Assembly: GCA_030018475.1 (NCBI GenBank)
Contig: JASEFT010000002.1
Span: forward strand, 26,037-73,851
Direction of reading: 5' to 3'
Source of the DNA: Thermoplasmatota archaeon
Lineage (GTDB): Archaea; Thermoplasmatota; JASEFT01
DNA: 47,815 bases
Shown here: positions 7,795-32,561 of the stretch, one piece after another
Numbering within the stretch: position 1 is the first letter of the stretch
Layout of the letters: the number at the start of each line of letters is the position of its first letter
Translations under genes and position numbers: made by a program
The notes under the pieces: generated by a model
What the model saw: only the letters and a program-made list of their open reading frames with translations
The model's database searches: none
What the model was told of the DNA's origin: nothing

Positions 7795-8469
7795 ATGCCG
7801 GAAACAGTAGAAGAACTAACAACGACTTATTCGCGAGCTGAACTAGACGAAATGGCAGAAGAGCTAGGCTTGGTTCCAGAAGACTACCCTAATAAAGCCG
7901 CAATAGCAAAGGCTATTATTGCAGCAAGAAAAGCCAAACCGCCTGCTGTTAAAATACCCCCGAAAGTAGGCAAGAAAGGCGTGTACGCAAAGATAAAGGC
8001 CGCAGAAAAGTTCACTGCAAAAATGGACGCAGACGTAAAGGCACAAATTGGAGAAAACGTAGAAGCAGTCAAAAAGATAGAAACTGGTATTAGGGAAGTC
8101 GGGGGAAAGATAGAAGAAAAAGTTGATGACATTCAGTCAGCTGTAGACACACAGATAAAAGAGAACCAAGCTAAGGTTGCAGAGATAGGCAAAGATATCA
8201 AAGCACAGCAAAGGGAGAACATAGCGGCAGTCAAAAAGATAGAGACTGGCATAAGTGAAGTAACAAAGGCGAACGAAGCAAAAGTCAAGCAAATCCAGGC
8301 AGACATAGGAAAGCTGGTTAAGGAAAATCTAAGCGCAGTCAAAAAGATCAGTGAAGGTATAAAAGAGCAAGCAAGAGAAAACAAAGAGGCAGTTGAAGCG
8401 TTCGAACCAAAGGTTAGGGAATTGCAGACTGCTAACAAGAAATACGTAGACGACTTCTACTATGGCTGA
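7795..8469 (+). CDS. GvpC-like repeat protein (amphipathic coiled-coil repeats; SAP/Rho-N-like N-terminal motif; C-terminal KKYVDDFYYG)
   Basis: It occupies the gvpC position of the A-C-N-O order. There are three repeats of EN(V/I/L)xAVKKI(E/S)(T/E)GI.E. The N-terminus SRAELDEMAEELGLVPEDYPNKAAIAKAIIAA resembles SAP/Rho_N helix-hairpin motifs. An SD AGGAGGT sits 7 nt upstream. Confidence 0.5.
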   Translation: MPETVEELTTTYSRAELDEMAEELGLVPEDYPNKAAIAKAIIAARKAKPPAVKIPPKVGKKGVYAKIKAAEKFTAKMDADVKAQIGENVEAVKKIETGIREVGGKIEEKVDDIQSAVDTQIKENQAKVAEIGKDIKAQQRENIAAVKKIETGISEVTKANEAKVKQIQADIGKLVKENLSAVKKISEGIKEQARENKEAVEAFEPKVRELQTANKKYVDDFYYG

Positions 8470-9790: not shown

Positions 9791-10168
9791 ATGGCCGAGG
9801 AAAAAAGAGTTGAAGCTGTAATTAAGGAGGCAAAAATTAGGAAGATAGTCGATCTGTGGAGTCACAAACCAAGAGGATTGCAGTTTAATGATACAGATGC
9901 TCTGATAGTGACTGCAGAAACCGAGGCTGGAAAGATAATAAATGAAACGTTCTACTTCTGTCTAAAACCAGATGGAACGTTTAATATAGATACTGTAAGC
10001 AAGAATGGCAGCCATGTGAGGAGACAAAGACTTGCTAGTTTCCTAACACACTACAAGATCACAGACACACCAAAAAGCTACAATATAAAGGAAGGAGTAG
10101 AAAAATGGAAGGGGAAAAAGATAGAAATTGTCCCATACAAAGATGAGGGATATATCTATATTCCATAG
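9791..10168 (+). CDS. hypothetical gvp-associated protein (paralog of 21825..22421)
   Basis: The C-terminus RRQRLASFLTHYKITDTPKSYNIKEGVEKWKGKKIEIVPYKDEGYIYIP parallels RRKRLESFLKHYKITDKIEGYSIPERMKEWKKKKVKVVTYKGQDQIFIP of ORF 21825. SD AGGAGGT upstream. Confidence 0.5.
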   Translation: MAEEKRVEAVIKEAKIRKIVDLWSHKPRGLQFNDTDALIVTAETEAGKIINETFYFCLKPDGTFNIDTVSKNGSHVRRQRLASFLTHYKITDTPKSYNIKEGVEKWKGKKIEIVPYKDEGYIYIP

Positions 10169-10893: not shown

Positions 10894-11931
10894 ATGGGGG
10901 TAATAGGAATGTATGAAAAAGATAGATATGATATAACAGGAAGAAAAACAAGAGGCGGAGTAAGATACCATAAAACCATGGAAGAAAAAGAAATGGAAAG
11001 AAGAGAAGCAGAACTCAAGGCTATGCAGCTTGAGAAAACCAGGCAAGAAATTGAGGAGCAATTTCTAACGCCTAAGGCAGAGGTATTCGTTGAAACCGAA
11101 GAAATCAAAGACCTGGAAGAAAGAGTAAAAACTTGGATCGGCCTCGGCTATCCAGTTCACATAATAGGACCAACAGGTTGCGGGAAGACTATGTTAGCAG
11201 TCCACGTAGCGAGTCAGCGTGGAAGACCAGTAGTATGGCTGAATGGTGATGAGGAGATGACAACAACACACCTTGTTGGTGGATACGGACAATACTTGGA
11301 GGAGCACTATCATGACAGATTCATTCATAATGTCTATAAAAGCAGAGAAATGGTTGAACCTGGTTGGGTAGATAATCCATTGACAATTGCATGCAAATAT
11401 GGCTATACATTAATCTATAATGAGTTTTCCAGAGCTAAACCAGAGGCAAATAATGTTTTACTTTCTGTGTTAGAGGAAAAAATACTTGAACTGCCAACAA
11501 AGTTCGGTGAGGAAAGATATATCAAAGTACATCCGGACTTTGCTGCAATACTAACCAGCAACTCAATAGAATACGCAGGGGTACACGCCCCGCAGGATGC
11601 ATTGCTAGACAGAATGATAGCTTTGCATATGGGCTATTACAGTTTCGATACCGAGGTAGAGATCGTCAAAGCCCAAACAGGCATACCTGAGAAGGAAGCA
11701 AAAAAAGTAGTAAAGGTGGTGAGAGCAATAAGAGACAAGCTTCCAGAGGCAGAGAAGCCAGGGTCGAGAGCGTGTATACAGGTTGCTCAAGGACTGCAAG
11801 CGTGGAACGGTTACAGTAAGAAAAACTTCGAAAAAGTATGCATTGATGTGCTTGGATGCAAGATGAAAGGGCTAGACGAGTTATCTAAGATGGAGAAACT
11901 GATAAAAGAAGCGCTTGACAAGCTCACATAA
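10894..11931 (+). CDS. gvpN: GvpN AAA+ ATPase (copy 2)
   Basis: Walker A IIGPTGCGKTM. Clearly paralogous to 8769..9779 over its whole length (GLGYPVHIIGPTGCGKT...PVVWLNGDE...DNPLT.ACKYGYTL.YNEFSR.KPEANN.LLSVLEE.ILELPTKFGEERY..VHPDF). 345 aa. Confidence 0.9.
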   Translation: MGVIGMYEKDRYDITGRKTRGGVRYHKTMEEKEMERREAELKAMQLEKTRQEIEEQFLTPKAEVFVETEEIKDLEERVKTWIGLGYPVHIIGPTGCGKTMLAVHVASQRGRPVVWLNGDEEMTTTHLVGGYGQYLEEHYHDRFIHNVYKSREMVEPGWVDNPLTIACKYGYTLIYNEFSRAKPEANNVLLSVLEEKILELPTKFGEERYIKVHPDFAAILTSNSIEYAGVHAPQDALLDRMIALHMGYYSFDTEVEIVKAQTGIPEKEAKKVVKVVRAIRDKLPEAEKPGSRACIQVAQGLQAWNGYSKKNFEKVCIDVLGCKMKGLDELSKMEKLIKEALDKLT

Positions 11932-11962: not shown

Positions 11963-12778
11963 GTGAAGATGAAGGACGAGGTGGAAAGACGTAAAGAGAA
12001 AAGGGAAAAGATAAGAGCAAATAAGAGAAAACAGAGAGAACTTGTAGAAGCTCATCAGGAAAAAATTAGAGAAGAAATCAAACCATACCTCACGAGAAGG
12101 AAGAGGGCGCACGATTTAAAAGTAGAGGAATTGCAAAAAGATATAAAAGAAAAAGGCAGAGTGCAAAAGGAAGAGGCTAGAGAAAAAGTAAAAAAGCAGC
12201 AGGAAAGGCAGAAAGCAAAAGTAGAGGCTCAGAAAGAGAAGATAAGACTGCAGCAGATTAAGCAAAGAGAAACTGTAGCAGCGCAAATGGAAAAACAGCA
12301 AGCAAGGCTTAAACCAATAATTGAAAGAAATAGGGAAATAGTAGAAGACAGAAAACTCACTAGTAGATTAGATGAGATAAGAAGAGGAAGATTCCTTTTT
12401 ACTTATTCAACCATGCCATCAAAAAAGTTTGCAGACTCAACAACCTATTCTCCAAAGCATTCAACAGTACCAGATCCTGAGTTTAGAGAAAAAACAACTT
12501 ACTCACCAAAGTACACAACTGTACCAGATCCAAAATTTGCAGAAAAAACAAATTTCTCGCCCAAATTCAAGACAGTACCAAAACTGGAGTTTGCGGAGAA
12601 AACAACTTATTCACCCAAGCACTCAACTGTGCCTAAGCCGGAATTTGCAGAGAAGACAACACATTCAACAGTGCCGAGCATAGATTTTGCGCACTCTACA
12701 CACTACTCGATCGTAGAGTTTGAGAGAGTAGCTGATGATAAGGTAAAAACTGAGAAAGAGCGAAAATGGATGGAATAA
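11963..12778 (+). CDS. K/E/R-rich coiled-coil protein with C-terminal 18-aa tandem repeats (TTYSPKHSTVPDPEFxEK x4-5)
   Basis: The N-terminal ~150 aa are almost entirely K/E/R/Q (charged single alpha-helix or coiled-coil type). The C-terminal repeats are TTYSPKHSTVPDPEFREK / TTYSPKYTTVPDPKFAEK / TNFSPKFKTVPKLEFAEK / TTYSPKHSTVPKPEFAEK / TTHSTVPSIDFAHS. A DNA tandem repeat lies at ~12440-12700. Confidence 0.5.
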   Translation: MKMKDEVERRKEKREKIRANKRKQRELVEAHQEKIREEIKPYLTRRKRAHDLKVEELQKDIKEKGRVQKEEAREKVKKQQERQKAKVEAQKEKIRLQQIKQRETVAAQMEKQQARLKPIIERNREIVEDRKLTSRLDEIRRGRFLFTYSTMPSKKFADSTTYSPKHSTVPDPEFREKTTYSPKYTTVPDPKFAEKTNFSPKFKTVPKLEFAEKTTYSPKHSTVPKPEFAEKTTHSTVPSIDFAHSTHYSIVEFERVADDKVKTEKERKWME

Positions 12779-13779: not shown

Positions 13780-14175
13780 ATGGTAAATGTAAGACCTGCA
13801 AGTGAAGGCTTAAAAGAAGTTTTGGATAGGATACTAGATAAAGGAATTGTTATTGATTTGAATGCAAGAGCCTGCCTTAGCGATTTTGAGCTTTTAGGCA
13901 TAAACGCAATTGTTATTTTGAGCTCGTTCAAAACAGCTGCAAAGATCGGCATGGATTTTCCAGAGGGGACGAAAATGGATACTCCTGCATGGAAGGATTT
14001 ACTGTCAAAGCAGCCATGCCCGCTCTGCGGCAAGGAGTCGAGAACAAAAGAATTAAAAGAAGAAGGCTGCCCTTGGTGCGGCTGGAATTACAGACCTAAG
14101 TATAAAGAAGATAAGAAAACTTTCGAAAAAGAGCGAAAATATAGGTATGGGAAGGGAGGGAAATGGAGGAAATAG
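13780..14175 (+). CDS. GvpA-family (GvpJ/M-like) protein with C-terminal CxxC...CPWCGW zinc ribbon
   Basis: GvpA core [48 protein letters not shown], then CPLCGKESRTKELKEEGCPWCGWNY. Confidence 0.8.
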   Translation: MVNVRPASEGLKEVLDRILDKGIVIDLNARACLSDFELLGINAIVILSSFKTAAKIGMDFPEGTKMDTPAWKDLLSKQPCPLCGKESRTKELKEEGCPWCGWNYRPKYKEDKKTFEKERKYRYGKGGKWRK

Positions 14176-14549
14176 AAATATTAAGACCGGAAATAGAAAC
14201 TGAGGATACTGGCTTGGCAGGTGCAATTGACAGAATTCTAGATAAAGGTTTAGTGCTCAATGCAGATATTACAGTATCGGTTGCTGGTACTGAGTTATTG
14301 GGCATAAAAATAAGAGCTGCGCTCGCTAGTTTCGAAACTGCCGCAAAATATGGCTTAGAATTTCCATCTGGAACGAACATAAACACTGCAGCCTGGAAAG
14401 AGGCAACAATAGAGAAAGATACTTGTCCGCAGTGTGGTAAAAGATCATCTATAGAGGAATTGTTAAACGAGAGCTGTCCTTGGTGCGGCTGGGTATCTGC
14501 AAAGGCAAAAGTAGCAGTAAAACAAAAAGTAAAAGTGTTACAAAAGTGA
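14163..14549 (+). CDS. GvpA-family (GvpJ/M-like) protein with C-terminal CPQCG...CPWCGW zinc ribbon (paralog of preceding gene)
   Basis: LAGAIDRILDKGLVLNADITVSVAGTELLGIKIRAALASFETAAKYG, then CPQCGKRSSIEELLNESCPWCGWVS. Overlaps the upstream gene by 13 nt. Confidence 0.8.
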   Translation: MEEIEILRPEIETEDTGLAGAIDRILDKGLVLNADITVSVAGTELLGIKIRAALASFETAAKYGLEFPSGTNINTAAWKEATIEKDTCPQCGKRSSIEELLNESCPWCGWVSAKAKVAVKQKVKVLQK

Positions 14550-14556
14550 AACAAAA

Positions 14557-15357
14557 ATGGTTGATAACTCGTTCAAAAGGCTTGCTGAGTTCTTACCTTC
14601 AGATAAAAAAATTGCTGTTCTTAATGAGCTTTTAACTGTTTATGACGAAAGTGAGTTAGCGAAACTGCTTAAGTGCGATCCTCCTCTTATCAAGAAATGG
14701 TTGAGAAAAGCTCCGAGCAATAAATACATGCCCAAAATACTAGGGCTTGCTTTTTTCCGCTCCCCAAATATAGGTGATATACTTAAAGAAACGTTAACTG
14801 AGTTTGATTCTTTAGCTAAGTTGCTCGGCATAAAAGATGTAACTAGCAAGTTGGGCATTTTTATGAAGGAATTAGATGAAAGGAGCAGGGAAATAGTCTG
14901 GTATCTACTGAGAAACGGTCATGCAAATATTCGCGAGCTTGCAGAGATAACTAACGCAAAGACAGATAATGAAGTTCTTGTTAGGGTGAGAGAGCTTATA
15001 AACCCAAAATCAAAAGAACTCTTCGGTAAAGAAATAATGAAATTCGAAGAAGCTAAAATTAATTCTGTAACAGGTGAAAAAATTCTATTTTCATGGTGGC
15101 TGACTGAGAATATTCTACCTCTGGAGAGAGCCCCAACACTACTTGACGTATTTGATGAAAATTCTCGGATTAAAATAGTAGCAGAACTGCCGAGAGTTAA
15201 AGAAGATGATATAAAAATAGATATTGCACACCAGATCCTTACTATTTCAACTAATGGATATCAAAAAACAATCCCCCTATTTTGTAAGGTAAAGAAGATT
15301 GAAAAAACCTACAGGAATGGGATACTGGAGCTGAAGCTAGAAAAAGCTATGGAATGA
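14557..15357 (+). CDS. HTH-like N-terminal region fused to Hsp20/alpha-crystallin domain (GvpH-like)
   Basis: The C-terminus LLDVFDENSRIKIVAELPRVKEDDIKIDIAHQILTISTNGYQKTIPLFCKVKKIEKTYRNGILELKLEKA is an alpha-crystallin core. The N-terminal IVWYLLRNGHANIRELAEITNAKTDNEVLVRVRELI looks like a helix-turn-helix. Confidence 0.6.
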   Translation: MVDNSFKRLAEFLPSDKKIAVLNELLTVYDESELAKLLKCDPPLIKKWLRKAPSNKYMPKILGLAFFRSPNIGDILKETLTEFDSLAKLLGIKDVTSKLGIFMKELDERSREIVWYLLRNGHANIRELAEITNAKTDNEVLVRVRELINPKSKELFGKEIMKFEEAKINSVTGEKILFSWWLTENILPLERAPTLLDVFDENSRIKIVAELPRVKEDDIKIDIAHQILTISTNGYQKTIPLFCKVKKIEKTYRNGILELKLEKAME

Positions 15358-15366
15358 TAAAAAAAA

Positions 15367-15945
15367 ATGGCAGAAGAGAAAGAAGAAGATTACAAAAAAA
15401 GAATAAAAGAGCTTGAAGCCAGAATAAAAGCGCTCGAAAAGGAAAGAGAAAAGCCTAAAGAAGAAGAGCCTAGTATTGTAGAAGGTGTTGTTTCTCAATT
15501 TATACCTGGCTTGAGCGGTATTATTAAGAGCTTAGAAAAGAGCTCCCCTGAATTTAGAAAGCGCATTGCAGAGACTGATGCCAAAATCAAGCATAGATTA
15601 GAGACTGGCTGGACAAGCAAGCCTAAAGTGGAGTATGGTGTCACTGTGCGCGAGCTTGTACCTGAGAAGAGGGAAAAAATAGAAATAAAGCCGAAGGAAG
15701 TAAAAGCTCCTACTCTCGAGCGTGAGCCAATTGTCGATGTTTTTGAAACTGAAAAATATATTTCTGTAATTGCAGAACTGCCTGGTGTTGAGGAAAGAGA
15801 AATAAAAACGAAACTTACTGAAGACGGGCTTGAAATTTCTGCGGGTAGATATAAAAAAATTATCAAGCTCCCTTCTAAGCCAAAAGCGATTGGTGAGAAA
15901 ACATACAAGCACGGCATCTTAGAGCTTAAAATAGATAAAAAATGA
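15367..15945 (+). CDS. Hsp20/alpha-crystallin-domain protein (GvpH-like)
   Basis: PIVDVFETEKYISVIAELPGVEEREIKTKLTEDGLEISAG...YKHGILELKIDKK. Coiled-coil K/E N-terminus. Confidence 0.6.
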   Translation: MAEEKEEDYKKRIKELEARIKALEKEREKPKEEEPSIVEGVVSQFIPGLSGIIKSLEKSSPEFRKRIAETDAKIKHRLETGWTSKPKVEYGVTVRELVPEKREKIEIKPKEVKAPTLEREPIVDVFETEKYISVIAELPGVEEREIKTKLTEDGLEISAGRYKKIIKLPSKPKAIGEKTYKHGILELKIDKK

Positions 15946-16027: not shown

Positions 16028-16348
16028 ATGACTATTAATATTGACGAGAACAATCTAAAGCAAGGCTTGCTTGGCTTGGTAGTAGCGCTAGTCGAAGTAA
16101 TACAGGAAACGCTAGAAAGGCAAGCGCTTAGAAGAATGGAATCAGGAAGATTGACAGAAGAAGAAATTGAGCGACTAGGAAATGCATTAATGGAACTTGA
16201 TGAAGCGCTTGAGCACATAAAAAAAGAAAATAAAATTGAAGAAGCAGTAAAATCAGTGAGAAGCGGTCTTGATAATATAGCACACGAGCTCGTAAACAAA
16301 ATGGTCAATCCAGAGAAGTGGAAAGAGGAAGTTGAGGCAAATGCCTGA
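16028..16348 (+). CDS. gvpK: gas vesicle protein GvpK
   Basis: LLGLVVALVEVIQETLERQALRRMESGRLTEEEIERLGNALMELDEALEHI matches the conserved GvpK core (GL..LV..VVELL...E..A.RRMESG.L...EIERLG). Confidence 0.8.
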   Translation: MTINIDENNLKQGLLGLVVALVEVIQETLERQALRRMESGRLTEEEIERLGNALMELDEALEHIKKENKIEEAVKSVRSGLDNIAHELVNKMVNPEKWKEEVEANA

Positions 16349-17171
16349 AGAAGAGGTGGTAGTTGAAAAAGAGGCACTAGAAGCTCAGGAGGCTAGATAT
16401 CTTTATTGTATAATTAACTCTAGCGCTACCTCAGACTTTGGTGATATGGGGATAGAGGACAGCAAAGTTTACACTATACCTTGTAAAGACATTGCTGCAG
16501 TTGTGCATAAATGCGCTCCTAAGCCTTACAAATCAAAAGACGAGAATCTGGTGAAAGAATGGATTTTAGCGCATCAATATATTATTGACGAAGCCATGAA
16601 AAAATTTGGTACGCCAATACCTTTCACTTTTGATACTATAATTAAAGGTGATGATGACAAAGTAAAAGAGTGGCTAGCTGAAGATTACCCAACGCTTAAA
16701 GCCAAACTGGAAAAAGTCAAAGATAAAGCAGAATACACTGTTCAAATATTTTGTGAGCCTAATATTATTCTTAAAGAAATTGAGGCCCAAAACGAAGCTC
16801 TGAAGAAATTAAAAGAAGAGATCAAAACAAAGCCTAAAGGCATCGCTTATATGCTCAGCCAGAAATTAGAAAGAATGCAAAAAGAAGAGCTGATAAAGCT
16901 TGAGAATAATTATGTTAAAGATTTTTACGAGCAGCTAAAGAGCCTCGTTGACGAATGTATAGCAGAGCCTACAAACAAGCCAGTGCCTGAAAAATGGAAA
17001 GCTCAAAAGCTAATTTTAAATTTGGCTTGTCTAGTACATAAGGATAAAGTTGAGAAGCTTGGAGAAGAGTTAGGGAAGATTAATAAAACCCAAAAATTCA
17101 AGGTGAGGTTTACAGGTCCTTGGGCACCTTTCTCATTTGTCGGCAAAGAGCTTGGGGAGAAGAAAACTTGA
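16332..17171 (+). CDS. gas vesicle protein GvpF/L family
   Basis: The N-terminus YLYCIINSSATSDFGDMGIEDSKVYTIPCKDIAAVVH plus internal ILAHQYIIDEAMKKFGTPIPFTFDTII and the C-terminal [10 protein letters not shown] are typical GvpF/L. Overlaps gvpK by 17 nt. Confidence 0.75.
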   Translation: MRQMPEEEVVVEKEALEAQEARYLYCIINSSATSDFGDMGIEDSKVYTIPCKDIAAVVHKCAPKPYKSKDENLVKEWILAHQYIIDEAMKKFGTPIPFTFDTIIKGDDDKVKEWLAEDYPTLKAKLEKVKDKAEYTVQIFCEPNIILKEIEAQNEALKKLKEEIKTKPKGIAYMLSQKLERMQKEELIKLENNYVKDFYEQLKSLVDECIAEPTNKPVPEKWKAQKLILNLACLVHKDKVEKLGEELGKINKTQKFKVRFTGPWAPFSFVGKELGEKKT

Positions 17172-18160
17172 AAAAGGGTATATACATCTACGGAATAATT
17201 GAAGAGAACGGGAACAAAAGTTTCGGGCAAATTGGAATGGATAAGAGCGAAGTATATACTATTCCCTATCAAACTCTTGCTGCTGTCGTTAGCAACGTGC
17301 CTGCTATGGTATATCAACTTACTCCCGAAAATGCAAGGGCCCATGAGAACGTTATCAGAAAAGTTATGGAAGAGCGCTCAGTTATTCCTATGAGTTTCGG
17401 TACGGTCGCGAGCAATGGCAGCCAAGTTGAAAAGATTTTGAGTATTGGTTACAAGGTATTCAAATCCATGCTTGAAAGGATAGAAAATAAGATCCAAATA
17501 GATGTAAAGGTGCTGTGGGATAAAGATAAAATATACCTTGACATTTTGCGCGAAAACGAAAATATCAAAAGGTTAACTAGGAAAGCAGATAAGTCCCAAG
17601 AGGATAAAATAGAGCTTGGCAAGCTTGTCAACCAAGCGTTAGCTGAGAAAAGAGAATTTTATATTGGTGAGATAAAAAATGTTTTAGCCAATTTTTCAGA
17701 GCCGCCAAAAGAAAACAAGCTTACCGATGAAAGAATGATTTTGAACTTGGCTTATTTGGTTGATAAAACAAGAGAACAAGAATTTTATGACAGGGTAAAT
17801 GAGAAAGAGAGAAGTTATGAAGGCAAACTCCAGATAATCGCAGTGGGCCCCCTGCCTGCTTATAATTTTACTAAACTAGAATTAAAAAAGCTAGATTTTA
17901 AATTGATAGACAGTGCAAGAAAAATACTAGGGCTAAATGAAGAAATAACCAATGAAGAGCTTGAAGAAGCGCATCGAAAGCTTGCATATAGATATCATCC
18001 AGATAGAAATCCAAACGATGTGGCTTCAGAGCAGCAGTTCAAAAAAATTGAGAAAGCCTATATGATACTTGCTAGGTATTCCAAAAATTATCCTGCTGGA
18101 AAAATCTCGCTCAAGAAAGAAGATGTTGATAAAACCATTCTGATCCTGGAAAAAGAGTGA
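17120..18160 (+). CDS. GvpF/L-family protein fused to C-terminal DnaJ (J) domain
   Basis: GvpF/L core [39 protein letters not shown]...VGPLPAYNF. The C-terminal 70 aa [52 protein letters not shown] carry the HPD J-domain signature. An in-frame TTG at 17168, overlapping the upstream TGA, is an alternative start. Confidence 0.75.
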
Positions 18161-18165
18161 AAAAA

Positions 18166-20064
18166 ATGAGCAAGATCATAGGTATAGACCTGGGGACGAG
18201 TAATTCTGCAGCTGCCGTAATTGTAAATGGTAGTGTAAAAATAATACCTAGCGCGGAAGGTCTTGCTCTGCATGGTAAAATGTTCCCTTCAGTTATTACT
18301 TTTCTGGAAGAGGGGAAGGTAATAGTAGGAAAGGATGCAAAAAAATTAATGGCTCCTGGGCGCACGATAACAAACATCAAAAGAAAGATGGGTACTGATT
18401 ATAAAATAAAAATCGGTAAGAAATGGTATATCCCACAAGAGCTCTCAGCGCTTATTTTAAAGAAGATAAAAAAAGATGCAGAATTATATCTTAATGAATC
18501 TATAAAGAAAGCAGTTATTACTTGCCCTGCATATTTTAACGATAATCAAAGAACTGCAACGAGAGATGCAGGTGTTATCGCAGGCTTAGATGTTGTGCGC
18601 ATTATAAACGAGCCTACTGCAGCAGCTTTAGCTTACGGGCTAGATAAAACTAAAAGAAAATTGAATATCGCAGTTTTGGATTTAGGTGGTGGCACTTTCG
18701 ATGTTACTATTCTAGAAATGTGCAATTCTGTGTTTAGAGTTATAGCTACCTCCGGCGATACTCAGCTTGGCGGAATAGATATGGATAATAAAATTCTAGA
18801 TTATCTGGTTGATAAGTTAAGAGGAGAAGCGCTTGATTTAAAAGCCGAAAATCTCATGCAGGTATTAAGAAACGAGGCAGAAAAGGCAAAAATAAACCTA
18901 TCTTCTAAACTTTCAACAACCATAAATTTGCCTTTTACTAATGTAAATATAAATCTAACGAGGACTAAACTAGAAGAGCTGATTGAAGATGTAATTTCAA
19001 GAATGGATAAACCATTAGAGCAAGCATTGGCAGACTCGAATTTAGCTCCTAAAGATATCGATAAAATAATTCTGGTAGGCGGGCCTACAAAAATGCCGGT
19101 TATTAGAAAAAAGGTAAAAGAATTTTTCGGTAGAGTTCCTGAGCGCGGTATAGATCCTATGCACTGTGTTGCTGCAGGCGCTGCTATCCAAGGGAGCGTG
19201 CTTTCCGGTGAACTTGGTAATATTGCGCTCCTTGACGTTACACCGCTCTCATTAGGTATAGAGACTTCAGGCACTGTGTTCACAAGATTAATACACAGAA
19301 ATACTACTATCCCAGTAGAAGAGAGCAGAGTATTTACAACTGCACAGGATTTTCAGTCTGTAGTGCCAATCCATGTATTGCAAGGTGAAAGAGCGCTTGC
19401 GCACGACAATATAACTTTAGGCGTGTTTAATCTAACTGGAATAAAGCCTGCACCTAGACACGAGCCCATGATTGAAGTTACTTTCAGTATAGATGCTAAT
19501 GGCATATTACACGTCTCTGCAGAAGATTTGGAAACCGGTAAAAAGCAAGCAATCGAAATAACAGAATCGACAAGATTGCCTAAAGAAGAGATAAGCAGAA
19601 TGATCAACGAGGCAGCAGTGTTTGCAGAGCTGGATAAAAGAAAGGAAAATGAGATAAAGCTTCGCACTAGAGCAGAAGCGCTTATCTACGAGCTGGGCCA
19701 AGTAATAAAAAAAGAAAAGCTCCCTATTGACGAGAAAAGGAATATTACAACGCTTGTTAAAGAATTAAAGCACGCGCTAAGAGTTAATAATAATGAGCAA
19801 GTGAAGAGCGCTACTGAGGAATTGAATAAATTAGTAGATAGAATAGCATTAAGAAACAGAGCTGCTAACCGAGCAAACGCATTAATATCTTCGGCAAACA
19901 AAATGATTACAGAAATTAAAATTCCCAAAGCCGAAAAAGTGGCTATTGAGGAAATGATTGTGAAATTAAAAGAAGCGTTAAAGAATGATAACACTAAAGA
20001 AATCGAAAAGCAGATCGGTGAGCTGACTGAAGAATTGACTATATTAGAGGTAGATTATAAATGA
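18166..20064 (+). CDS. Hsp70/DnaK-family chaperone (divergent, gvp-cluster-embedded)
   Basis: [65 protein letters not shown] and [16 protein letters not shown] are canonical Hsp70 NBD motifs. The track start is GTG at 18157, overlapping the upstream stop; ATG at 18166 gives the canonical [11 protein letters not shown]. 632-635 aa. Confidence 0.9.
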
Positions 20065-21091: not shown

Positions 21092-21514
21092 ATGGTAGAT
21101 ATAAGTCCTCTAGAAGAGAGGGGAAAGGCTGAGCAGCAGAGAATAAAAGTACAAGCCAAAAGAGCCGAGGATAGAGCCAAACGCTCTGAAAAAAGAAGAA
21201 TTGCAGCAGAAAAATTACGAGAAAAGGCTGAGAAGTGGCGTAAAGAGATAGAGAAAAGAGAAGAAAATAGAATGGCGGCAGCAGAAAAATGGCGAGCAGA
21301 AGCAGAAAAGTGGCGACAAAAAACAGAAAGAGAACGTGAAGAAAGGGCGAGAGCCAGTGAGAAATGGAGAGCCGATGCGCAAAGAAGACATGAAGAGCGA
21401 GAAAGAAGGCATAGGGAGAGAAGAGAAGCTGCAGAAAAAAGAGAGGCAGAAGCAAGAAGGAAATCAGAGGAGCGAGGAACAGCCTATTTATCTCGTTCAA
21501 TGAGTCGTTGGTAG
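21092..21514 (+). CDS. highly charged E/R/K-rich repeat protein (AEKWR repeats)
   Basis: RIAAEKLREKAEKWRKEIEKREENRMAAAEKWRAEAEKWRQKTEREREERARASEKWRADAQRR is a periodic EKWR motif. Likely a single alpha-helix or coiled coil. Confidence 0.4.
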   Translation: MVDISPLEERGKAEQQRIKVQAKRAEDRAKRSEKRRIAAEKLREKAEKWRKEIEKREENRMAAAEKWRAEAEKWRQKTEREREERARASEKWRADAQRRHEERERRHRERREAAEKREAEARRKSEERGTAYLSRSMSRW

Positions 21515-21824: not shown

Positions 21825-22421
21825 GTGAAGTATATGGCAGAGTTATATAAGCCGAAATTAACACCAAAAAGGAGCCCAAAAGAAATTAAAGAAAGATTTA
21901 GGAAGGAGAAAAAGCGACATGCAGAAGCTCTAGAACGATTAAGAGAAGCAAGAAAAATCGAGCTAGAAAAGGTAGATGCTACAATTGAAGATGCGATACT
22001 TTATACCGACACATCTTGGTTTGTTGAAAATTTCGATAACTGCTATGAAATAAAGGATTTATGGGCAACGAGACCTAAACTTTATGGTGATACCGATGTG
22101 ATAGCTGTAACTTTAAAACCATCCGAGGGTAAGCCGATAACAGATATATTCCCAGTTGTGCTGAGATTTGACGGCACATTAGAACCCAATGCTACATCTA
22201 GAAGGTCGCGCATTAGAAGGAAAAGGCTTGAAAGTTTTCTAAAACACTATAAAATAACCGACAAAATAGAAGGTTATAGTATACCTGAAAGAATGAAAGA
22301 ATGGAAAAAGAAAAAAGTAAAAGTAGTTACCTACAAGGGACAGGATCAAATCTTTATCCCTAACCATCTAGTTAGATATCGTATGCCCAAAATGCCTGAA
22401 AAAATCAAAGAGGTGAAATAA
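21825..22421 (+). CDS. hypothetical gvp-associated protein (paralog of 9791..10168, with longer N-terminus)
   Basis: See 9791..10168. 198 aa. Confidence 0.5.
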   Translation: MKYMAELYKPKLTPKRSPKEIKERFRKEKKRHAEALERLREARKIELEKVDATIEDAILYTDTSWFVENFDNCYEIKDLWATRPKLYGDTDVIAVTLKPSEGKPITDIFPVVLRFDGTLEPNATSRRSRIRRKRLESFLKHYKITDKIEGYSIPERMKEWKKKKVKVVTYKGQDQIFIPNHLVRYRMPKMPEKIKEVK

Positions 22422-22568
22422 ATGGTGAAATATAAATATATAGGAAAACCTGAAAAATGCCCTGCGTGTGGCGAACCTGTAAAAAATCCAGACCTCAACT
22501 ATTGTTTGAAATGTGGTGAGATGTTCTGGAGCAAGGGGTTCACACGAAGAACTAAATTAATTAGATAA
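22422..22568 (+). CDS. small zinc-ribbon protein (48 aa), unannotated in track
   Basis: MVKYKYIGKPEKCPACGEPVKNPDLNYCLKCGEMFWSKGFTRRTKLIR has two CxxCG pairs. SD AGGTGA lies 6 nt upstream and the ATG directly abuts the upstream stop. Confidence 0.45.
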   Translation: MVKYKYIGKPEKCPACGEPVKNPDLNYCLKCGEMFWSKGFTRRTKLIR

Positions 22569-22577: not shown

Positions 22578-23156
22578 ATGAAGCCTACAAAAGATCTAGA
22601 ATGCACGCTTGTAGATGTGTTAGACAGAATTCTAGATAAAGGCATTATTCTTAATGCAGATGTTATTATCCACGTTGCAGGTGTGCCGCTGATCGGTATA
22701 AATTTAAGAGCTGCGCTCGCAGGTATAGAAACAATGCTTGATTACGGTATGATGGAAGCCTGGGATGCAAGTATAAGAAGCTGGTATGCAAAGGGGTATG
22801 CTGATAAAATAGCTGTGCCGTTGCAAGAAAACGAAAAAATTATACTCAAAACCTACGGCTCTTATTATAACGATGGCGGTATTTACTCTGCATGGCAGCA
22901 TGGCTATCTCTATCTTACAAACAAAAGATTATTTTTGTTTAGGAAAGAGCCTGCTAGAATGTTGTTTGAGACAGAGCTATTGAAAATAAGAAGTCTAGAG
23001 ATAAGTGAGAAAAACTATTTGGGAAAAAGCAGAGAAAATCTTTGCTTGTTATTAGAAAACAATAAAATTGCAATGCTTTATTCAGAGAACATAGAGGAAT
23101 TAAAGACTGCGATTAACAAACAAATAGAAATGCTACTAGCTGCAATAGAGCAATAG
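22578..23156 (+). CDS. GvpA-family N-terminal domain fused to C-terminal bacterial-PH (bPH/GRAM-like) domain
   Basis: The N-terminus [47 protein letters not shown] is a GvpA/J/M core. The C-terminus GYLYLTNKRLFLFRKEP...LLKIRSLEISEK matches the bPH_2-type motif (G.LyLTN.Rlif). Confidence 0.7.
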   Translation: MKPTKDLECTLVDVLDRILDKGIILNADVIIHVAGVPLIGINLRAALAGIETMLDYGMMEAWDASIRSWYAKGYADKIAVPLQENEKIILKTYGSYYNDGGIYSAWQHGYLYLTNKRLFLFRKEPARMLFETELLKIRSLEISEKNYLGKSRENLCLLLENNKIAMLYSENIEELKTAINKQIEMLLAAIEQ

Positions 23157-24059: not shown

Positions 24060-26306
<2,247 letters not shown>

Positions 26307-27571: not shown

Positions 27572-29533
27572 TCAGTCATATAATCCAGCTCCATACATAA
27601 CCTGAGCAAATTCTAGAAGCCCATCTACAGACCTAACCTCGTGTGGAAACAGAGGCATTTCAGTTATTGTAAAATTTGAAAATTTATTGTAGATATCTTT
27701 GACATAATCTAGCTCTCTTTCTGCTCGTGAGGCACAGAAACTGCAGCTGCTAAGGGGTGTGACTTTATTAATAACGATCTTATGCACAGGTATCTCAAGC
27801 TCCCGAAGCCTTTTAACTACGCGCTCTGTTTCAACAATACCCAGCTTCTCAGGAACTGTAACAACAACAAACTCAGTTCTACTCTCATCTTTTAAGAGAG
27901 AGATTAGGTTTTTAACAAGTTTCTTCTTGGTGAGCACGAGTTTCATACAATTGTAAAGAGAAACTATTTTTCGGTATTTCATCATGGTTTTGATAAGAGC
28001 GCTGAGCCAGTCCATAACTATCGCTGGAAGCTCGAGTAACTTTAACAAATGCCCGGAAGGAGCTGTATCTAAGATGAAAATATCGTATCTGCCTTCTTCA
28101 ATGAAGTCCATAATTTTAGTCAGGGCCATAAGCTCGTCTAAACCAGGTGGCGAGAGCTCTAGAGTTCTATCGAACATTTTTCTATCAAATGGCAAGTCTA
28201 TACCTGCACCACCAGTGATGAACCCTTCGAATATTTCGTCGATCTCTTTCTTATATGTTTGCTTAAATTCGTTTAATGCCTCGTCTGCATCCATTGCTAC
28301 AGCATACAGGTTTTCCTTTATCTGCAGCGGCTCTGTACCTATCAGCAAATCAAAACTCCTGCCTAGTGCCTGTGCTGGGTCGGTAGAAAAAATCAATATT
28401 TTCTTGTCAGGCAGCATTTTAGCAAGCTGTAGCGCGGTTGCAGCTGCTACGGTTGTTTTCCCTAACCCTCCTTTACCACCAAAGAGGTATAACTTGCGAG
28501 TACCATCAAACTTAATTTTCGGTCCGGGGGTTGGTGATATTTGTTCAGGTCCGTATCTCTTGATTAACTCATACTTGTATGATTTTCCAGAAAGAACTTC
28601 GCCGAACTTCTCGAGATTGCTTAACCCTTTAACTTCGTATGGTAACAAAGGGCTTTCGAGAATGTTGTGATTCGGGAATAAATTCTTGAGCTGCTCAATA
28701 TATTTTTTCTGCTTTTCAGCTCTAGATCTGCAAAAATCACATTCAGTAGATTGGTTAACTAGATTAACGATGATATTCTTTACGTTAATTTTATTCTTCT
28801 CGATGGTCTCGAGAAGTAATTTAGTCTCCTCCACACCCATTGATTCAGGTATTGTTACAGGCACAAATTCTGTCTTTCTAGGATCTGAGAAAAACGCTCT
28901 TATATTTTTCACATCTCTTATTTGCTGCTCTAAAAACCAATCCATTTCATCTTTTGGTAACTTTTTCCGTGCAAAGGTAGATCTTATATATCTGTGTTTA
29001 GCTTGCATTATACCTAAAATCTCAGCAAAGTCTTCTAACAGTTTGGGTAGGGAGAAGAAGCGCATCAAATGCCCTGTCGCTGCGGTATCTATTATGAAGA
29101 CATCGTAGGTATTCTCTTCTTTCATAAAATCTATGAGTTTCCGTACAGCCATGAGCTCGTCCATGCCTGGTATCGAAAGCTCGAAAAATCTTTCTAGATC
29201 TTGTGTATCGAGATAAGTGCCCCTATCTACTATGGTTTTAATGTATAGCTCGTTTTTTTTCTTGTATTCCCTTACAAGTTCTTCGGTATTTACTTCTAAA
29301 CCCCAGAGATTTTCATTAAGTTTAGTAATACTGCCACCGATCGTGCATTCGAATATATCTGAGAGTGAATGGGCAGGGTTTATCGAGACAAGCAAGGTTT
29401 TTCGGGCTTGTTTTGCTGTCAGTAGCGCTACCGCTGCAGCACATGTAGTTTTACCTACGCCACCTTTCCCGCCAAAAAATATGAGCTTTAAGTCTTTATC
29501 GCATAAAAAACTAGGTAATTCTTTAGTAATCAT
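27572..29533 (-). CDS. ArsA/GET3-family tandem (duplicated) P-loop ATPase
   Basis: Two halves each have GGKGGVGKTT/GGKGGLGKTT P-loops and DTAATGHLMRF / DTAPSGHLLKL switch-II signatures, plus CxxC pairs (ECDFC, SCSFC). 653 aa. Confidence 0.9.
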   Translation of the reverse strand: MITKELPSFLCDKDLKLIFFGGKGGVGKTTCAAAVALLTAKQARKTLLVSINPAHSLSDIFECTIGGSITKLNENLWGLEVNTEELVREYKKKNELYIKTIVDRGTYLDTQDLERFFELSIPGMDELMAVRKLIDFMKEENTYDVFIIDTAATGHLMRFFSLPKLLEDFAEILGIMQAKHRYIRSTFARKKLPKDEMDWFLEQQIRDVKNIRAFFSDPRKTEFVPVTIPESMGVEETKLLLETIEKNKINVKNIIVNLVNQSTECDFCRSRAEKQKKYIEQLKNLFPNHNILESPLLPYEVKGLSNLEKFGEVLSGKSYKYELIKRYGPEQISPTPGPKIKFDGTRKLYLFGGKGGLGKTTVAAATALQLAKMLPDKKILIFSTDPAQALGRSFDLLIGTEPLQIKENLYAVAMDADEALNEFKQTYKKEIDEIFEGFITGGAGIDLPFDRKMFDRTLELSPPGLDELMALTKIMDFIEEGRYDIFILDTAPSGHLLKLLELPAIVMDWLSALIKTMMKYRKIVSLYNCMKLVLTKKKLVKNLISLLKDESRTEFVVVTVPEKLGIVETERVVKRLRELEIPVHKIVINKVTPLSSCSFCASRAERELDYVKDIYNKFSNFTITEMPLFPHEVRSVDGLLEFAQVMYGAGLYD

Positions 29534-29567
29534 TTAGTGTGATTCCCCTTTCTCTTCACTGCTTTTC

Positions 29568-29852
29568 TCATCCTAAAATATCCATTCTTTTATTAAGATT
29601 CATACTGTTTACGCGGTTGGCTATTTTTAAGTTATGATTGAGCACATTGTTCCTTCTCTCATACTCTTCTTTAGAAATCTCGCCAAACTCATATAGGAGC
29701 CTGTTTTCTTTTAGCTGGTCGTTAATCTTATCAGGATTGTACACTTCTTGCAGTGTATGGTCTCTTATCTGCTCTACCAGCCAGATCATATCAAACGGTG
29801 GTATTGATATTCCGAGCATACGCAGAAATGCATCGTCTACAAAAAACGGCAT
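29568..29852 (-). CDS. gvpG: gas vesicle protein GvpG-like
   Basis: MPFFVDDAFLRMLGISIPPFDMIWLVEQIRDHTLQEVYNPDKINDQLKENRLLYEFGEISKEEYERR matches the GvpG pattern (L..L...A.E.YD...I...L.EL...YE.GEISEEEY...E..L). Confidence 0.6.
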   Translation of the reverse strand: MPFFVDDAFLRMLGISIPPFDMIWLVEQIRDHTLQEVYNPDKINDQLKENRLLYEFGEISKEEYERRNNVLNHNLKIANRVNSMNLNKRMDILG

Positions 29853-29860
29853 TTTTTAGT

Positions 29861-30262
29861 TCACCTCCTTATCCTATATCTTGGTTTTTTACCTTTTTTA
29901 GTCCCTTTCTTTTTTAATTGCAGGGCGCGATCAAACTCATCTATAATTTCGGACCTTCTTCTCTCATATTTTTCTTTTGTTATTTTACCAGATTCGTAAA
30001 GTGTCTTAATTTCTTTAAGAGGCTTTTCTAAAGACTTAGTAATTTCAAGTCTTTTCGAGAGCTCAGAGTTTATTTTCTCATAATCTTCTTTAGTTATCTC
30101 CTCTGCCTCATAAAGCAACTTGTTTTCTTCAAGCGCAGCTTTGATTTTTTCAGGATCGTAAACTTCTAAATAAGCAAGATCTCGTATTTTTTTAAGTATT
30201 TGAGTAGAGAGCTCGGTAGTAGGTTCGATAAGAAGCTTGTATGCTAGATATGAGAAGACCAT
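29861..30262 (-). CDS. GvpG-like protein (second copy, with duplicated YE-GxITKExYE motif)
   Basis: LAYLEVYDPEKIKAALEENKLLYEAEEITKEDYEKINSEL and LYESGKITKEKYERRRSEI. Confidence 0.5.
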   Translation of the reverse strand: MVFSYLAYKLLIEPTTELSTQILKKIRDLAYLEVYDPEKIKAALEENKLLYEAEEITKEDYEKINSELSKRLEITKSLEKPLKEIKTLYESGKITKEKYERRRSEIIDEFDRALQLKKKGTKKGKKPRYRIRR

Positions 30263-31753
30263 TTAGCTCACCTCTTTTCTTCCGACTTCTATACCTTTTG
30301 CACCGATCTTGACGCATACAAAACTATAGGGCGGCCAGGGCCCGGAATATTTAAGTATCAGATCCTTATATCTTTCGCTTAGTTGCCCAATTTCTTTAGA
30401 GAAGTCTTTTATTTTATGCTTGGGGACTAGGTAAGAGGCGTTTAGAATCAGCCTATCGCTAAACAATCTGCCTCTGACCGCTTCCGCAGCTTTTTTAGTG
30501 AGTGTATTGAAAATTTTTTCTCCCTCATTCTTAAGCTTTATCTTCTTCTTATCATCTAAAGATTTCACGGCCTGCTTAGGCACGATAGCTTTTACGCCCA
30601 GTTCGACTTTGTTATCTATCAATTTTGTACATTCTTTTAGAGCCTTATAGGCTTTTTTTATTAACACCCTTAGGATTTTCGGATTCTTGAAAACCTGTCC
30701 AAACGCAGCAGGAACTATAGAATACTTTTCTAACACTTTTCTTACAACTCCTTCGTGCGTTCTGGAATATTCTTCGGTCACAGAATAGTCTTTCACAGGC
30801 GTATCGCTAACAACTGCTGCTAAATCTTTGTAATTAATTGTATAGACCCTGCTTCCATCGCCTATTCCAATATTTCCAAACCTTATTTCTTTTTCAGGTG
30901 CAGGTATTATGCCGTAGAGATATTTACCTTCCGGGACTTTTAGTTTGAGTTTTCTTTCAGCTTCTGATTTAGCATAGCTTGCGAGCTCTACAGCTTTTGG
31001 TATTAGTTTGATAGTTTTATCATATTTTGCAGCACTAAATACTTTCTTTATTTCAGCGAACGATTTCTCCACTTCTTGCATTATCTCAGGAACATATTTT
31101 AGCGCTTTTGCTTCCCTAGCTTCTTCAACTGCTTTTCTCAGACTTGTCAATGCATTCTTTGCCTTTTTCCTCTTTTCTTCTACTTTCTTCTTCCGTACCT
31201 CTTCCAGTTTAAGCTTCCTTTCTTCTTCAAGCCTTCTTTCTTCCTCTAATTTCTTCTTCCGCTCAGCTTCTCTCTTCTTTCTCGCTCTTTCAAGTTTTTT
31301 CTTCCTTTCTTCCTCAAGTAATCTTTTCTCCTCTAATTTTTTTCTAAGCTCAGCTTCGCGCCTCTTTCTCTCGGCTTCCTTCCTTCTCTCCTCCACTTCC
31401 AAAACCCTGCGGTATGCAGAATTGAGCTCTTTTAACTGCCTAAAATGCTCTGCAAGAATACAAAGCCAAGAGCCCTCTTGGCCTTTAACCAAAAAAGGTC
31501 TATAGCCTGGAAAAGAGCCTCTACCGATAATCTTTACACTCTCAAGAGTTTTGCCAGCGAGTTCAGGTAAAGACTTGCACAGCTTGTTTATTTTGCTCAG
31601 TTTATCAAAATCTTCAGTTCTAATATAGAGATAGAGACCTCTCTGTCCACTTACTGAAAAAGGTTCTTCTCCACTTCTCTTACCAATAATTTCAAGCTTT
31701 TCAAGAGGCTTTAATTTTATCCTAGCCATTCCCTCACCAGTTGCTTTACTCAA
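30263..31753 (-). CDS. GvpF/L-family protein with N-terminal tandem novel domain and E/R/K-rich coiled-coil linker
   Basis: The C-terminal 250 aa are GvpF/L (YLYGIIPAPEKEIRFGNIGIGDGSRVYTINYKDLAAVVSD...YSGPWPPYSF). The N-terminal 115 aa are the duplicated domain shared with ORF 23578. The middle ~90 aa are an ERK repeat. Confidence 0.7.
   Translation of the reverse strand: MSKATGEGMARIKLKPLEKLEIIGKRSGEEPFSVSGQRGLYLYIRTEDFDKLSKINKLCKSLPELAGKTLESVKIIGRGSFPGYRPFLVKGQEGSWLCILAEHFRQLKELNSAYRRVLEVEERRKEAERKRREAELRKKLEEKRLLEEERKKKLERARKKREAERKKKLEEERRLEEERKLKLEEVRKKKVEEKRKKAKNALTSLRKAVEEAREAKALKYVPEIMQEVEKSFAEIKKVFSAAKYDKTIKLIPKAVELASYAKSEAERKLKLKVPEGKYLYGIIPAPEKEIRFGNIGIGDGSRVYTINYKDLAAVVSDTPVKDYSVTEEYSRTHEGVVRKVLEKYSIVPAAFGQVFKNPKILRVLIKKAYKALKECTKLIDNKVELGVKAIVPKQAVKSLDDKKKIKLKNEGEKIFNTLTKKAAEAVRGRLFSDRLILNASYLVPKHKIKDFSKEIGQLSERYKDLILKYSGPWPPYSFVCVKIGAKGIEVGRKEVS
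31195..31400. repeat. ~105-bp imperfect tandem duplication within the E/R/K linker-coding region of ORF 30263..31753
   Basis: Two consecutive ~35-codon units encode LEEKRLLEEERKKKLERARKKREAERKKK and LEEERRLEEERKLKLEEVRKKKVEEKRKK. Confidence 0.4.
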
Positions 31754-32561
31754 CTGTCTTTCTATTCAGCTCTACAGACTGCAAAAACTTACTCAAAAAC
31801 TTGCTGGCTTGCACATGCTCGTTAAGTATACCTCTTATTTTAGGCTCTGCACCTTTTGGAGGTTTGTAGAGCTTTGTTTTAACTTTATACTCGCATTTCA
31901 GCAAGCCTTTTTCTTCTAGCGAATGGAGCAGGGGATAAATTGTGCCAGGGCTTAGCAAGATGTTAAATTCTTTATGCACAGTCTTTATTATATCTGTACC
32001 GCACATAGGCTTGTTAAGTATTAATGCTAGGACGATAGTCTCAAGCTCGTTTTTAACAAATCTCTCTATAAACTCGTCTGAGATATTTGACTTGTCAAGC
32101 GTTTCCGAAGAAAGAACAGTGATATCGCTAGCTGTAAGCATGAGTTTGTCATGGCATTCCACTAACTCTTTTATAATCTTAGGGTCGAGCTTAGAGGCGT
32201 CATAGGTGCATAACATAAGCTGGTTTTTGCCTGCTCTCGCAAGACTCTTCTCTATTTTCAAATGCTCCTCTTTATCTATGGAGCCTGCATCTACGAGAAT
32301 TCTCAGTTTGTCGTTAAAGTTAATTCTACCAAGCCCACTAGGCTTGATAATAGAAATATCGAAATTCAATCCTTTAAGCTCTTGAGATACTGCATCAGGT
32401 TCGTCATTAGTTATATAAACTACCTTTTCATCTTTAGCTGCAGAGCCTATGAAAGGCGCATGAATTGCATATTTGTTCACATCAGGTGTATACAAATGCA
32501 AAGTATGCTTTGCTATAGCAGAAAGAATTGTATTTATCGCCGATATTTTGCCTTCTTCCAT
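31746..32561 (-). CDS. KaiC-like (P-loop-degenerate) domain fused to C-terminal PadR-type winged helix; candidate gvp regulator (paralog of 5895..6911)
   Basis: C-terminus NELETIVLALILNKPMCGTDIIKTVHKEFNILLSPGTIYPLLHSLEEKGLLKCEYK. The N-domain has RecA-like strand/helix alternation without GK[ST]. Confidence 0.55.
   Translation of the reverse strand: MEEGKISAINTILSAIAKHTLHLYTPDVNKYAIHAPFIGSAAKDEKVVYITNDEPDAVSQELKGLNFDISIIKPSGLGRINFNDKLRILVDAGSIDKEEHLKIEKSLARAGKNQLMLCTYDASKLDPKIIKELVECHDKLMLTASDITVLSSETLDKSNISDEFIERFVKNELETIVLALILNKPMCGTDIIKTVHKEFNILLSPGTIYPLLHSLEEKGLLKCEYKVKTKLYKPPKGAEPKIRGILNEHVQASKFLSKFLQSVELNRKTVE

Follow-up and report, generated by a model that had tools for sequence, protein, structure and literature searches.

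The window analysed here is a 47,815-nucleotide stretch of contig JASEFT010000002.1 from a Thermoplasmatota archaeon (assembly GCA_030018475.1), in which a very large gas-vesicle (gvp) gene region extends from about 5.9 kb to 32.6 kb. Within it lies a gene, here called gvpM-PH, whose product joins the gas-vesicle protein GvpM to a second domain with a predicted PH-like fold. The gene (22578..23156, + strand) has an ATG start, 192 codons and a stop according to the open reading frame (ORF) listing and the sequence, exactly as it had been delimited in a previous sequence-only reading of this DNA. Three parts can be distinguished in the protein: a GvpM core (residues 1-67; 22578..22778, +), made up of a coil, helix α1, a β-hairpin with a PLIG turn, helix α2 and a YGMMEAWD..R motif; a linker (residues 64-84, and so sharing four residues with the core annotation; 22767..22829, +), with a predicted helix at 64-75 followed by coil up to a conserved P81-L82; and the PH-like domain (residues 85-192; 22830..23153, +), with seven β-strands and a C-terminal helix. 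The last of these contains the pattern W106..G109-YLYLT-NKR-LFLFRK-P125, of which the motif GYLYLTNKRLFLF represents residues 109-121. A protein in the NCBI database that is 99% identical, from a Candidatus Thermoplasmatota metagenome-assembled genome (MAG), is named 'gas vesicle protein GvpJ'.

Sequence comparison makes it near certain that this is the GvpM gene of the archaeon's gas-vesicle cluster. The GvpA/J/M core that the sequence-only reading had placed at the N-terminus was borne out by the Pfam Gas_vesicle family (PF00741), which matches residues 10-48 over its full profile (1-39) with an E-value of 8.3e-16 and 58.3 bits against a cut-off of 25, and the subfamily can now be refined to GvpM. 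Among NCBIfam models, halo_gas_GvpM gives 94.4 bits (profile positions 1-67 of 67), GvpJ 50 bits and GvpA 42 bits; the first score falls short of its curated cut-off of 109 bits, as is expected because the model is a haloarchaeal 'exception' model and the protein an orthologue from a non-halophile. A tblastn search of plasmids with residues 1-70 had its best Halobacterium match in H. salinarum pNRC100, at the annotated gvpM, adjoining gvpL. By BLASTP, residues 1-67 are 52% identical (77.8 bits) to the 84-residue H. salinarum GvpM (p-vac/pNRC100), sharing with it the PLIG β-turn, RAA(L/I)A and (D/E)YG(M/L)xExWD..R, and the match to Halobacterium GvpJ is weaker (44% identity, 55.5 bits). When GvpJ and GvpA are aligned as well, three features prove common to the core and GvpM only: M(E/K)PTKD at the N-terminus, a turn that reads (V/I)PLIGI in place of the ELLGI of GvpJ and GvpA, and YG(M/L)xE(A/E)WDA..R following α2. 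Among solved structures, a family profile also finds GvpA in 8gbs (E 2e-10) and 7r1c (E 1e-8). The window holds five Gas_vesicle-family ORFs, and since the two other minor paralogues (13780..14175 and 14163..14549) score as GvpJ, the fusion is the sole GvpM-type gene among them.

Similarity to Halobacterium GvpM ends at residue 67, where the haloarchaeal tail is non-conserved. Known GvpMs have some 80-90 residues and a short tail, that of H. salinarum consisting of about 17-25 non-conserved and deletable residues, whereas GvpM-PH, at 192 residues, continues into a conserved linker and folded PH-like domain of about 125 residues together.

The position of the gene agrees with its identity. Twenty-one loci of relatives have readable flanks (L001-L021, of which L003 is a second contig with the same protein as L002), and in all of them no gvp-related gene on the same strand lies further downstream than the fusion, which directly follows gvpK-gvpL or else gvpK-gvpL, a gene for a GvpL-J-domain protein and an Hsp70 gene. 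In L005 and L021 additional gvp genes lie past the fusion, either on the opposite strand or beyond a gap; L024, a locus outside this set, has the same arrangement as the 21. As the order in Halobacterium is gvpJ-K-L-M, the fusion takes the place that gvpM has in the haloarchaeal gvpFGHIJKLM operon, downstream of both gvpK and gvpL like the H. salinarum gene, which belongs to the same A-J-M family (PMC8716928). In Methanosarcina barkeri, too, the reported order, gvpAAA-NOFG-JHKLM, has M last (PMC9501494).

In the window gvpM-PH keeps the strand and relative order seen in the relatives. Upstream lie gvpK (16028-16348, +; Pfam GvpK E 1.7e-21) and gvpF/L (16332-17171, +; Pfam GvpL_GvpF E 3e-68), the pair that directly precedes the fusion in the relatives' operons. 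They are followed by a gene for a GvpL-J-domain fusion (17120-18160, +; Pfam GvpL_GvpF plus DnaJ, E 1e-14) and, overlapping it by 4 nucleotides, by an Hsp70 gene (18157-20064, +), recognised from its translation and from the Pfam HSP70 match of its L001 homologue. In Bathyarchaeia and Thermoplasmatales relatives the GvpL-J-domain and Hsp70 genes stand immediately upstream of gvpM-PH, and the trio occurs in L001, L006, L008-L011, L013, L014, L017, L018, L020 and L024, which suggests that a dedicated Hsp70 system has been recruited to hydrophobic clients bound by GvpL. We found no description of this trio in the literature searched, and among the loci examined there was no strict correlation between the presence of Hsp70 and whether the fusion has one PH domain or two.

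For the C-terminal part, the sequence-only reading had proposed a bacterial PH domain, GRAM-like and of the bPH_2/YdbT type. The broader assignment stands and the narrower one does not. A Pfam profile search with the protein gave PH-clan matches, all of them sub-threshold, at residues 81-180: Vps36 GLUE (PF11605) with 22.9 bits (cut-off 24.1), bPH_3 (PF14470) with 22.1 bits (cut-off 23) and Carm_PH. Neither GRAM (PF02893) nor CheF-arch matched the window protein itself in the Pfam scan. The relatives give clearer matches: among 82 aligned family members, GLUE is matched by 56, bPH_3 by 46, GRAM by 26, PH_TFIIH by 15, CheF-arch by 9 and PH by 4, with best E-values of 2.9e-10 for GLUE, 2.4e-8 for bPH_3, 5.4e-8 for GRAM and 2.8e-6 for CheF-arch. 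In contrast, bPH_2 (PF03703) gave no match to the window protein at E<=10 and is absent from the 11 families matched at E<=0.01 among the 82 members, so the bPH_2/YdbT-type label was dropped; flanking transmembrane segments of the YdbT type are also lacking from the window protein.

Structure prediction agrees with the broader assignment. In an AlphaFold2 model built from the 82-sequence family alignment, residues 85-191 form seven strands and then a C-terminal helix, at a predicted local distance difference test score (pLDDT) of about 80-92, and the predicted arrangement is the seven-stranded antiparallel β-sandwich, closed at one end by the C-terminal helix, that defines a PH-like fold. A PDB sequence search with the family profile returned GvpA structures only, plus Vps36 at an insignificant E of 1.3, and with no significant PH match there, a fold search was needed to identify the domain. 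Structural neighbours include TAPP1, Akt, MTMR2 GRAM-PH, Lam6 and Vps36 GLUE, and in the fold search TFIIH p62, pICln and Ran-binding domains as well; the Foldseek result agrees. On the model, then, the C-terminal domain is a predicted PH-like fold of the GRAM/GLUE/bPH_3 kind. The window protein lies just under every curated cut-off of those families (Vps36 GLUE, myotubularin GRAM-PH, Lam6, PF14470), and the ligands of their domains, namely PI3P (phosphatidylinositol 3-phosphate), ubiquitin and sterol-rich membranes, have no evident counterpart for GvpM-PH.

Across the 82 members the core averages 74% pairwise identity and the PH sandwich 51%, compared with 36% for the C-terminal helix of the sandwich and 42% for the linker, in which P81 and L82 are nonetheless nearly invariant. 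An exposed basic set, K116, R117, R122, K123 and K176, is also nearly invariant across lineages assigned to different archaeal phyla. Candidates for a conserved surface are K116/R117 in the β2-β3 turn, R122-K123-x-P125 in the β3-β4 loop, and R107, the one basic residue at the start of β2, which 88% of members have and which is Q107 in the window protein. The β1-β2 loop, which usually shapes the lipid pocket in PH domains, varies in sequence and length, and the canonical phosphoinositide motif K-Xn-(K/R)-X-R, expected from the end of β1 to the start of β2, is absent from the domain. Net charge of the PH domain ranges from -6 to +10 across the family, with a median isoelectric point (pI) of 8.7; that of the window protein is near neutral, with a pI of 8.0.

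The fusion is conserved in the gvp clusters of relatives, so that both a PH-clan profile match and conservation of the architecture, the two points on which the sequence-only reading had staked the fusion, were found. The full-length query matched 319 clusters of 90% identity at E<=1e-3, and a second search from a Methanosarcinales member matched 528 clusters at E<=1e-10. In the best 120 matches of each search query coverage was at least 76% (76-100% in the first), so both domains were included, and the two-domain protein thus recurs far beyond chance. Two length classes exist, of about 190-200 residues with one PH domain and of about 310-330 residues with two, the second PH domain being homologous to the first and likewise predicted to have seven strands and a helix. 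According to source records and a genome scan, the carriers are Thermoplasmatales/Thermoplasmatota, many Bathyarchaeia, Methanocellales, Methanosarcinales, Methanothrix sp. and Ca. Methanoperedens; the scan of species-representative genomes used one peptide pattern and is a partial census. Further labels are 'Methanobacteriota', 'Thermoproteota', a 'Thaumarchaeota' MAG and one 'uncultured bacterium' bin, whose locus carries an archaeal-type CDC48. No cultured carrier was present among the named matches, with Methanosarcina barkeri and Methanothrix thermoacetophila not checked directly. Databases name these proteins 'GvpJ', 'GvpA', 'gas vesicle protein' or 'hypothetical', and none of the source names listed says GvpM or mentions a PH domain. 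Precomputed Pfam matches do exist on the tandem forms, so the architecture is open to anyone who looks and is not hidden.

The PH domain itself has a restricted distribution. When residues 77-192 alone were searched against 1.84 billion representative proteins, 102 matches were obtained at E<=1e-3, and 70 of the first 100 have a GvpM core upstream of the PH domain. The remainder of the first 100 are PH-only proteins, many of them short and possibly fragments, a few longer proteins without assignment, and certain other Gvp fusions. Two of these, the metagenomic proteins P0129 and P0142 (L023), are natural fusions of GvpK, the GvpM core and two PH domains. In P0176 (L024, 8001-8804) the N-terminal half of GvpL is joined to a PH domain; we rejected it as an independent architecture, for it belongs to a truncated, decayed duplicate cluster beside an intact one and so looks like a deletion remnant. 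Judged from these sequences, this PH subfamily occurs almost only on Gvp proteins. The GvpK-GvpM fusions fit the proposed seeding sub-network of GvpK, GvpJ, GvpS(M) and GvpL (PMC11445434, PMC7688916).

What is known of GvpM gives a frame for interpreting the fusion. It is reported to be essential and early-acting, with point mutants of an all-or-none kind; it interacts with GvpL, can recover every accessory Gvp in pull-downs and is prone to aggregation (PMC7688916). The last 25 residues of the Halobacterium protein are dispensable for vesicle formation (PMC8716928). GvpJ, GvpM and GvpS have been proposed to act in nucleation or at the tip and not to form the bulk of the shell (PMC9994262, PMC11445434), and GvpJ and GvpS, with the same GvpA-like core, are proposed to work alongside GvpK and GvpL when the vesicle is seeded and at the bicone stage (PMC11445434). 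The nucleation factor suggested in the sequence-only reading is thereby supported indirectly, in that the core is a GvpM orthologue and GvpM belongs to an early seeding complex in these accounts, haloarchaeal and bacterial (PMC7688916, PMC9994262, PMC11445434).

We therefore propose a layered explanation, to which we would give about an even chance: GvpM-PH would be a sparse nucleation component whose PH domain serves as a cytoplasmic docking module. GvpM would seed a new vesicle together with GvpJ, GvpK, GvpL and GvpF. In place of the tail that Halobacterium can spare, the protein has a helical linker followed by a folded domain of the PH-like kind, and many relatives have two of these domains. 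Subunits of the GvpA type have an outward topology, and a PH domain of about 110 residues is an estimated 3 nm or so across, the tandem forms being larger. In the GvpA lattice, helix α2 and the C-terminus lie outside, at the side where GvpC binds, and subunits are spaced about 12 Å apart along ribs with a pitch of 48.8 Å (PMC9994262). If the hydrophobic α-β-β-α core of GvpM inserts into the nascent shell as GvpA does, its C-terminus, and hence the PH domain, would be cytoplasmic. As a domain of about 3 nm cannot fit at each 1.2 x 4.9 nm lattice site, GvpM-PH would be sparse or terminal, possibly at the cone apex, the nucleus or the seam. The confinement of the PH subfamily to Gvp proteins suggests a gas-vesicle-specific partner, and docking of assembly factors is our best guess at its function, with GvpL/GvpF, GvpK, the zinc-ribbon GvpJ described below and the GvpL-J-domain/Hsp70 pair as candidates. 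On the same grounds the adaptor role suggested in the sequence-only reading is plausible.

We infer topology, sparse placement and docking alike, and the docking part stands well short of the near certainty of the gene's identity. Several observations weigh against the explanation. No docking partner was identified in this analysis, and the steric argument combines bacterial GvpA lattice data with a generic domain size. The packing of the core against the PH domain is not confident in the AlphaFold2 model, with an N-terminal pLDDT of 43-64 and a predicted template modelling score of 0.58 (0.48 for the tandem form); a poor model of the core is what we would expect for a subunit that folds within an assembly. 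In the window about 2.5 kb with six ORFs separates Hsp70 from gvpM-PH, unlike in the relatives; four of these ORFs are without a family match, and the others are a 198-residue ORF and a zinc-ribbon ORF. Every named carrier is a MAG, and gas vesicles are a prediction from the genes for these organisms as for the archaeon of the window. Finally, R107 (in most members), R122 and K123 occupy that end of the barrel at which anionic lipids are bound by classical PH domains, and the ligand may therefore be a lipid or another anionic compound.

One alternative needs no specific ligand: the hydrophilic PH domain might keep the aggregation-prone GvpM core soluble while its bulk blocks GvpA-like polymerisation into ribs. 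Haloarchaeal GvpM and GvpJ do aggregate, GvpM is kept from aggregating by GvpH (PMC7688916), the spacing of the GvpA lattice (PMC9994262) is too tight for a PH domain on each subunit, and gas-vesicle assembly in Bacillus megaterium tolerates the fusion of split reporters to GvpS, a GvpA paralogue (PMC11445434). A pure tag, however, would require neither the nearly invariant exposed basic set nor a tandem duplication, and the clusters already have Hsp20-like proteins, and often Hsp70, to provide solubility. We consider such a passive role rather unlikely.

The fold neighbours raise a second alternative, since many of them (TAPP1, Akt, MTMR2 GRAM-PH, Lam6 and Vps36 GLUE) bind lipids: the domain might bind anionic archaeal lipids and tether vesicles or their nuclei to the cytoplasmic membrane. 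It is mildly basic, with the median pI given above, and, as judged from strand register, R107, R122 and K123 lie at the β1-β2/β3-β4 end of the barrel. Against this stand the variable β1-β2 loop, the missing phosphoinositide motif, Q107 in the window protein, the spread of net charge among members and the near-neutral window copy, as well as the confinement of the subfamily to Gvp proteins, a sign of a partner specific to gas vesicles. Attachment to membranes is not known for gas vesicles. The passages of the gas-vesicle literature consulted, which were chosen for other points, are silent on membrane attachment. Overall, a lipid anchor seems quite improbable, and for the membrane-templated form of nucleation put forward in the sequence-only reading we found nothing in favour.

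It has also been shown that bacterial PHb domains form dome-shaped C5 rings (PMC2817789), and GvpM appears as dimers and multimers in pull-downs (PMC7688916). PH domains that self-associate into a small ring could therefore gather GvpM cores and template the cone apex, and the tandem forms would double the local PH concentration. Yet no Pfam scan revealed a sequence relation to the ring-forming PF08000, and the nearest structural matches, eukaryotic PH, GRAM and GLUE domains, are monomeric, leaving this as a rather remote prospect. That the fusion is an artefact, whether a frameshift or assembly merger of adjacent genes or a decaying pseudogene, is refuted for practical purposes by its conservation across assemblies: one relative (P0176) does resemble a deletion remnant, but the ORF is uninterrupted, its junction and linker are found again in hundreds of independent assemblies, from lineages assigned in the source records to several archaeal phyla, and both domains are conserved at 51-74% mean identity.

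Returning to GvpM-PH as a sparse nucleation component with a docking module, a bolder version can be entertained, tentatively and as something we think unlikely on balance, in which the gas-vesicle nucleus has acquired folded cytoplasmic 'handles', PH on GvpM and a zinc ribbon on GvpJ, and the PH domain is the hub that couples the first GvpM/GvpJ/GvpK/GvpL seed to a dedicated chaperone machine of J-domain GvpL and Hsp70, perhaps with CDC48 or ArsA. If this were true, the PH domain might in addition link the completed vesicle with some other structure of the cell and would be a natural, genetically encoded tag for the place of GvpM in the vesicle, in a large, uncultured and mostly anaerobic archaeal clade.

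GvpM itself and its proposed role in seeding have been described; what is new is the PH-like module added to it. In the full-text literature searched, which does not extend to subscription-only papers, we found no link of gas vesicles or GvpM with PH, GRAM, GLUE or bPH domains, and no account of Thermoplasmatota or Bathyarchaeota gvp clusters. A functional analogy may be seen in archaeal CheF (PF04283), a cytoplasmic PH-like module that serves as protein-protein adaptor for a large machine, the archaellum, to which it connects CheY. The CheF-arch profile is the one matched by 9 of the 82 members noted above, although the context and partners of CheF are unlike those of GvpM-PH. GvpJ, for its part, is reported to have its own lineage-specific C-terminal extension, which is functionally important (PMC8716928).

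Nucleation and the location of GvpJ, GvpM and GvpS are stated open questions of the field (PMC9994262, PMC11445434). A GvpM with one or two C-terminal domains of 13 kDa implies a C-terminus that is free and exposed to solvent when the protein is at work, and argues against GvpM as a regular lattice subunit, and the PH domain would be a density marker big enough for cryo-electron tomography at cone tips or the seam. The non-halophilic archaeal gvp clusters depart systematically from that of Halobacterium, in that GvpM bears a PH domain, GvpJ a zinc ribbon and GvpL a J-domain accompanied by its own Hsp70, and these departures are relevant to gas vesicles engineered as acoustic reporters. The carriers are uncultured anaerobes whose gas vesicles lack prior study, and the fusion could help to show how vesicles are initiated.

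Among the remaining genes of the window, the two GvpJ-like paralogues (13780-14175 and 14163-14549, both +) differ from GvpM-PH in that each ends in a CPxCG...CPWCGW zinc ribbon and not in a PH domain. The zinc-ribbon GvpJ co-occurs with GvpM-PH in most of the relatives' loci where the region is present, and with PH on GvpM and a zinc ribbon on GvpJ, both minor GvpA paralogues thus bear C-terminal modules predicted to be folded. They are followed, in the position of gvpH, by two Hsp20/α-crystallin-like genes (14557-15357 and 15367-15945, +), homologues of which occur in essentially all related clusters; the first protein has a winged-helix-like N-terminal region with a weak HTH_24 match.

Just upstream of gvpM-PH, a zinc-ribbon ORF of 48 residues (22422..22568, +) with weak DZR and DUF7575 matches ends 9 nucleotides before it, and tblastn places homologues adjoining the fusion in L005, L006 and L007. 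Before this ORF lies the 198-residue ORF (21825-22421, +), a paralogue of a 125-residue protein, 'u9791' (9791-10168, +), which is without a Pfam, NCBIfam or PDB match and whose gene follows gvpN in many relatives; the two are 42% identical over 107 residues in the C-terminal half, and the longer one has about 75 extra N-terminal residues. As an obligate partner of the PH domain the 'u9791' family was rejected, as it is absent from the PH-type clusters L013, L014, L018 and L020. A scan for sigma-70 promoters and intrinsic terminators around gvpM-PH gave counts at or below shuffle expectation, such a scan not being meaningful for an archaeon. Further upstream, a 140-residue, extremely charged protein (21092-21514, +) with EKWR/AEKxR-type repeats has no family match; its ORF overlaps long antisense ORFs, and the product may be a coiled-coil accessory protein of the gvp cluster, or the ORF may be no gene at all.

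The proximal part of the region has two copies of gvpA (7184-7408 and 7538-7762, +), each of 74 residues and differing at one, followed by a coiled-coil, GvpC-like repeat protein (7795-8469), and two copies of gvpN (8769-9779 and 10894-11931, +) that encode AAA_5-type proteins of 336 and 345 residues. Next comes a 271-residue protein (11963-12778, +) without a family match, in which the N-terminal half is rich in lysine and glutamate and a TTYSPKHSTVPDPEFAEK-like peptide is repeated in tandem about five times; homologues with 51-70% identity lie within the gvp clusters of L004 and L007. On the minus strand, a gene for a CDC48/VCP-type double AAA ATPase (24060-26282) lies beside the gvp genes, as a CDC48 homologue does near those of L005, L012, L016 and L021, a recurrence perhaps beyond coincidence. 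A second, divergent gvp-related block (27572-32561, -) encodes a tandem ArsA-type ATPase of 652 residues (ArsA_ATPase E 3e-146), a type of protein whose link with gas vesicles is hinted at by the title of PMC2963123, two small ORFs, a 495-residue GvpL/GvpF protein with an N-terminal extension of about 270 residues, and a PadR plus MEDS regulator.

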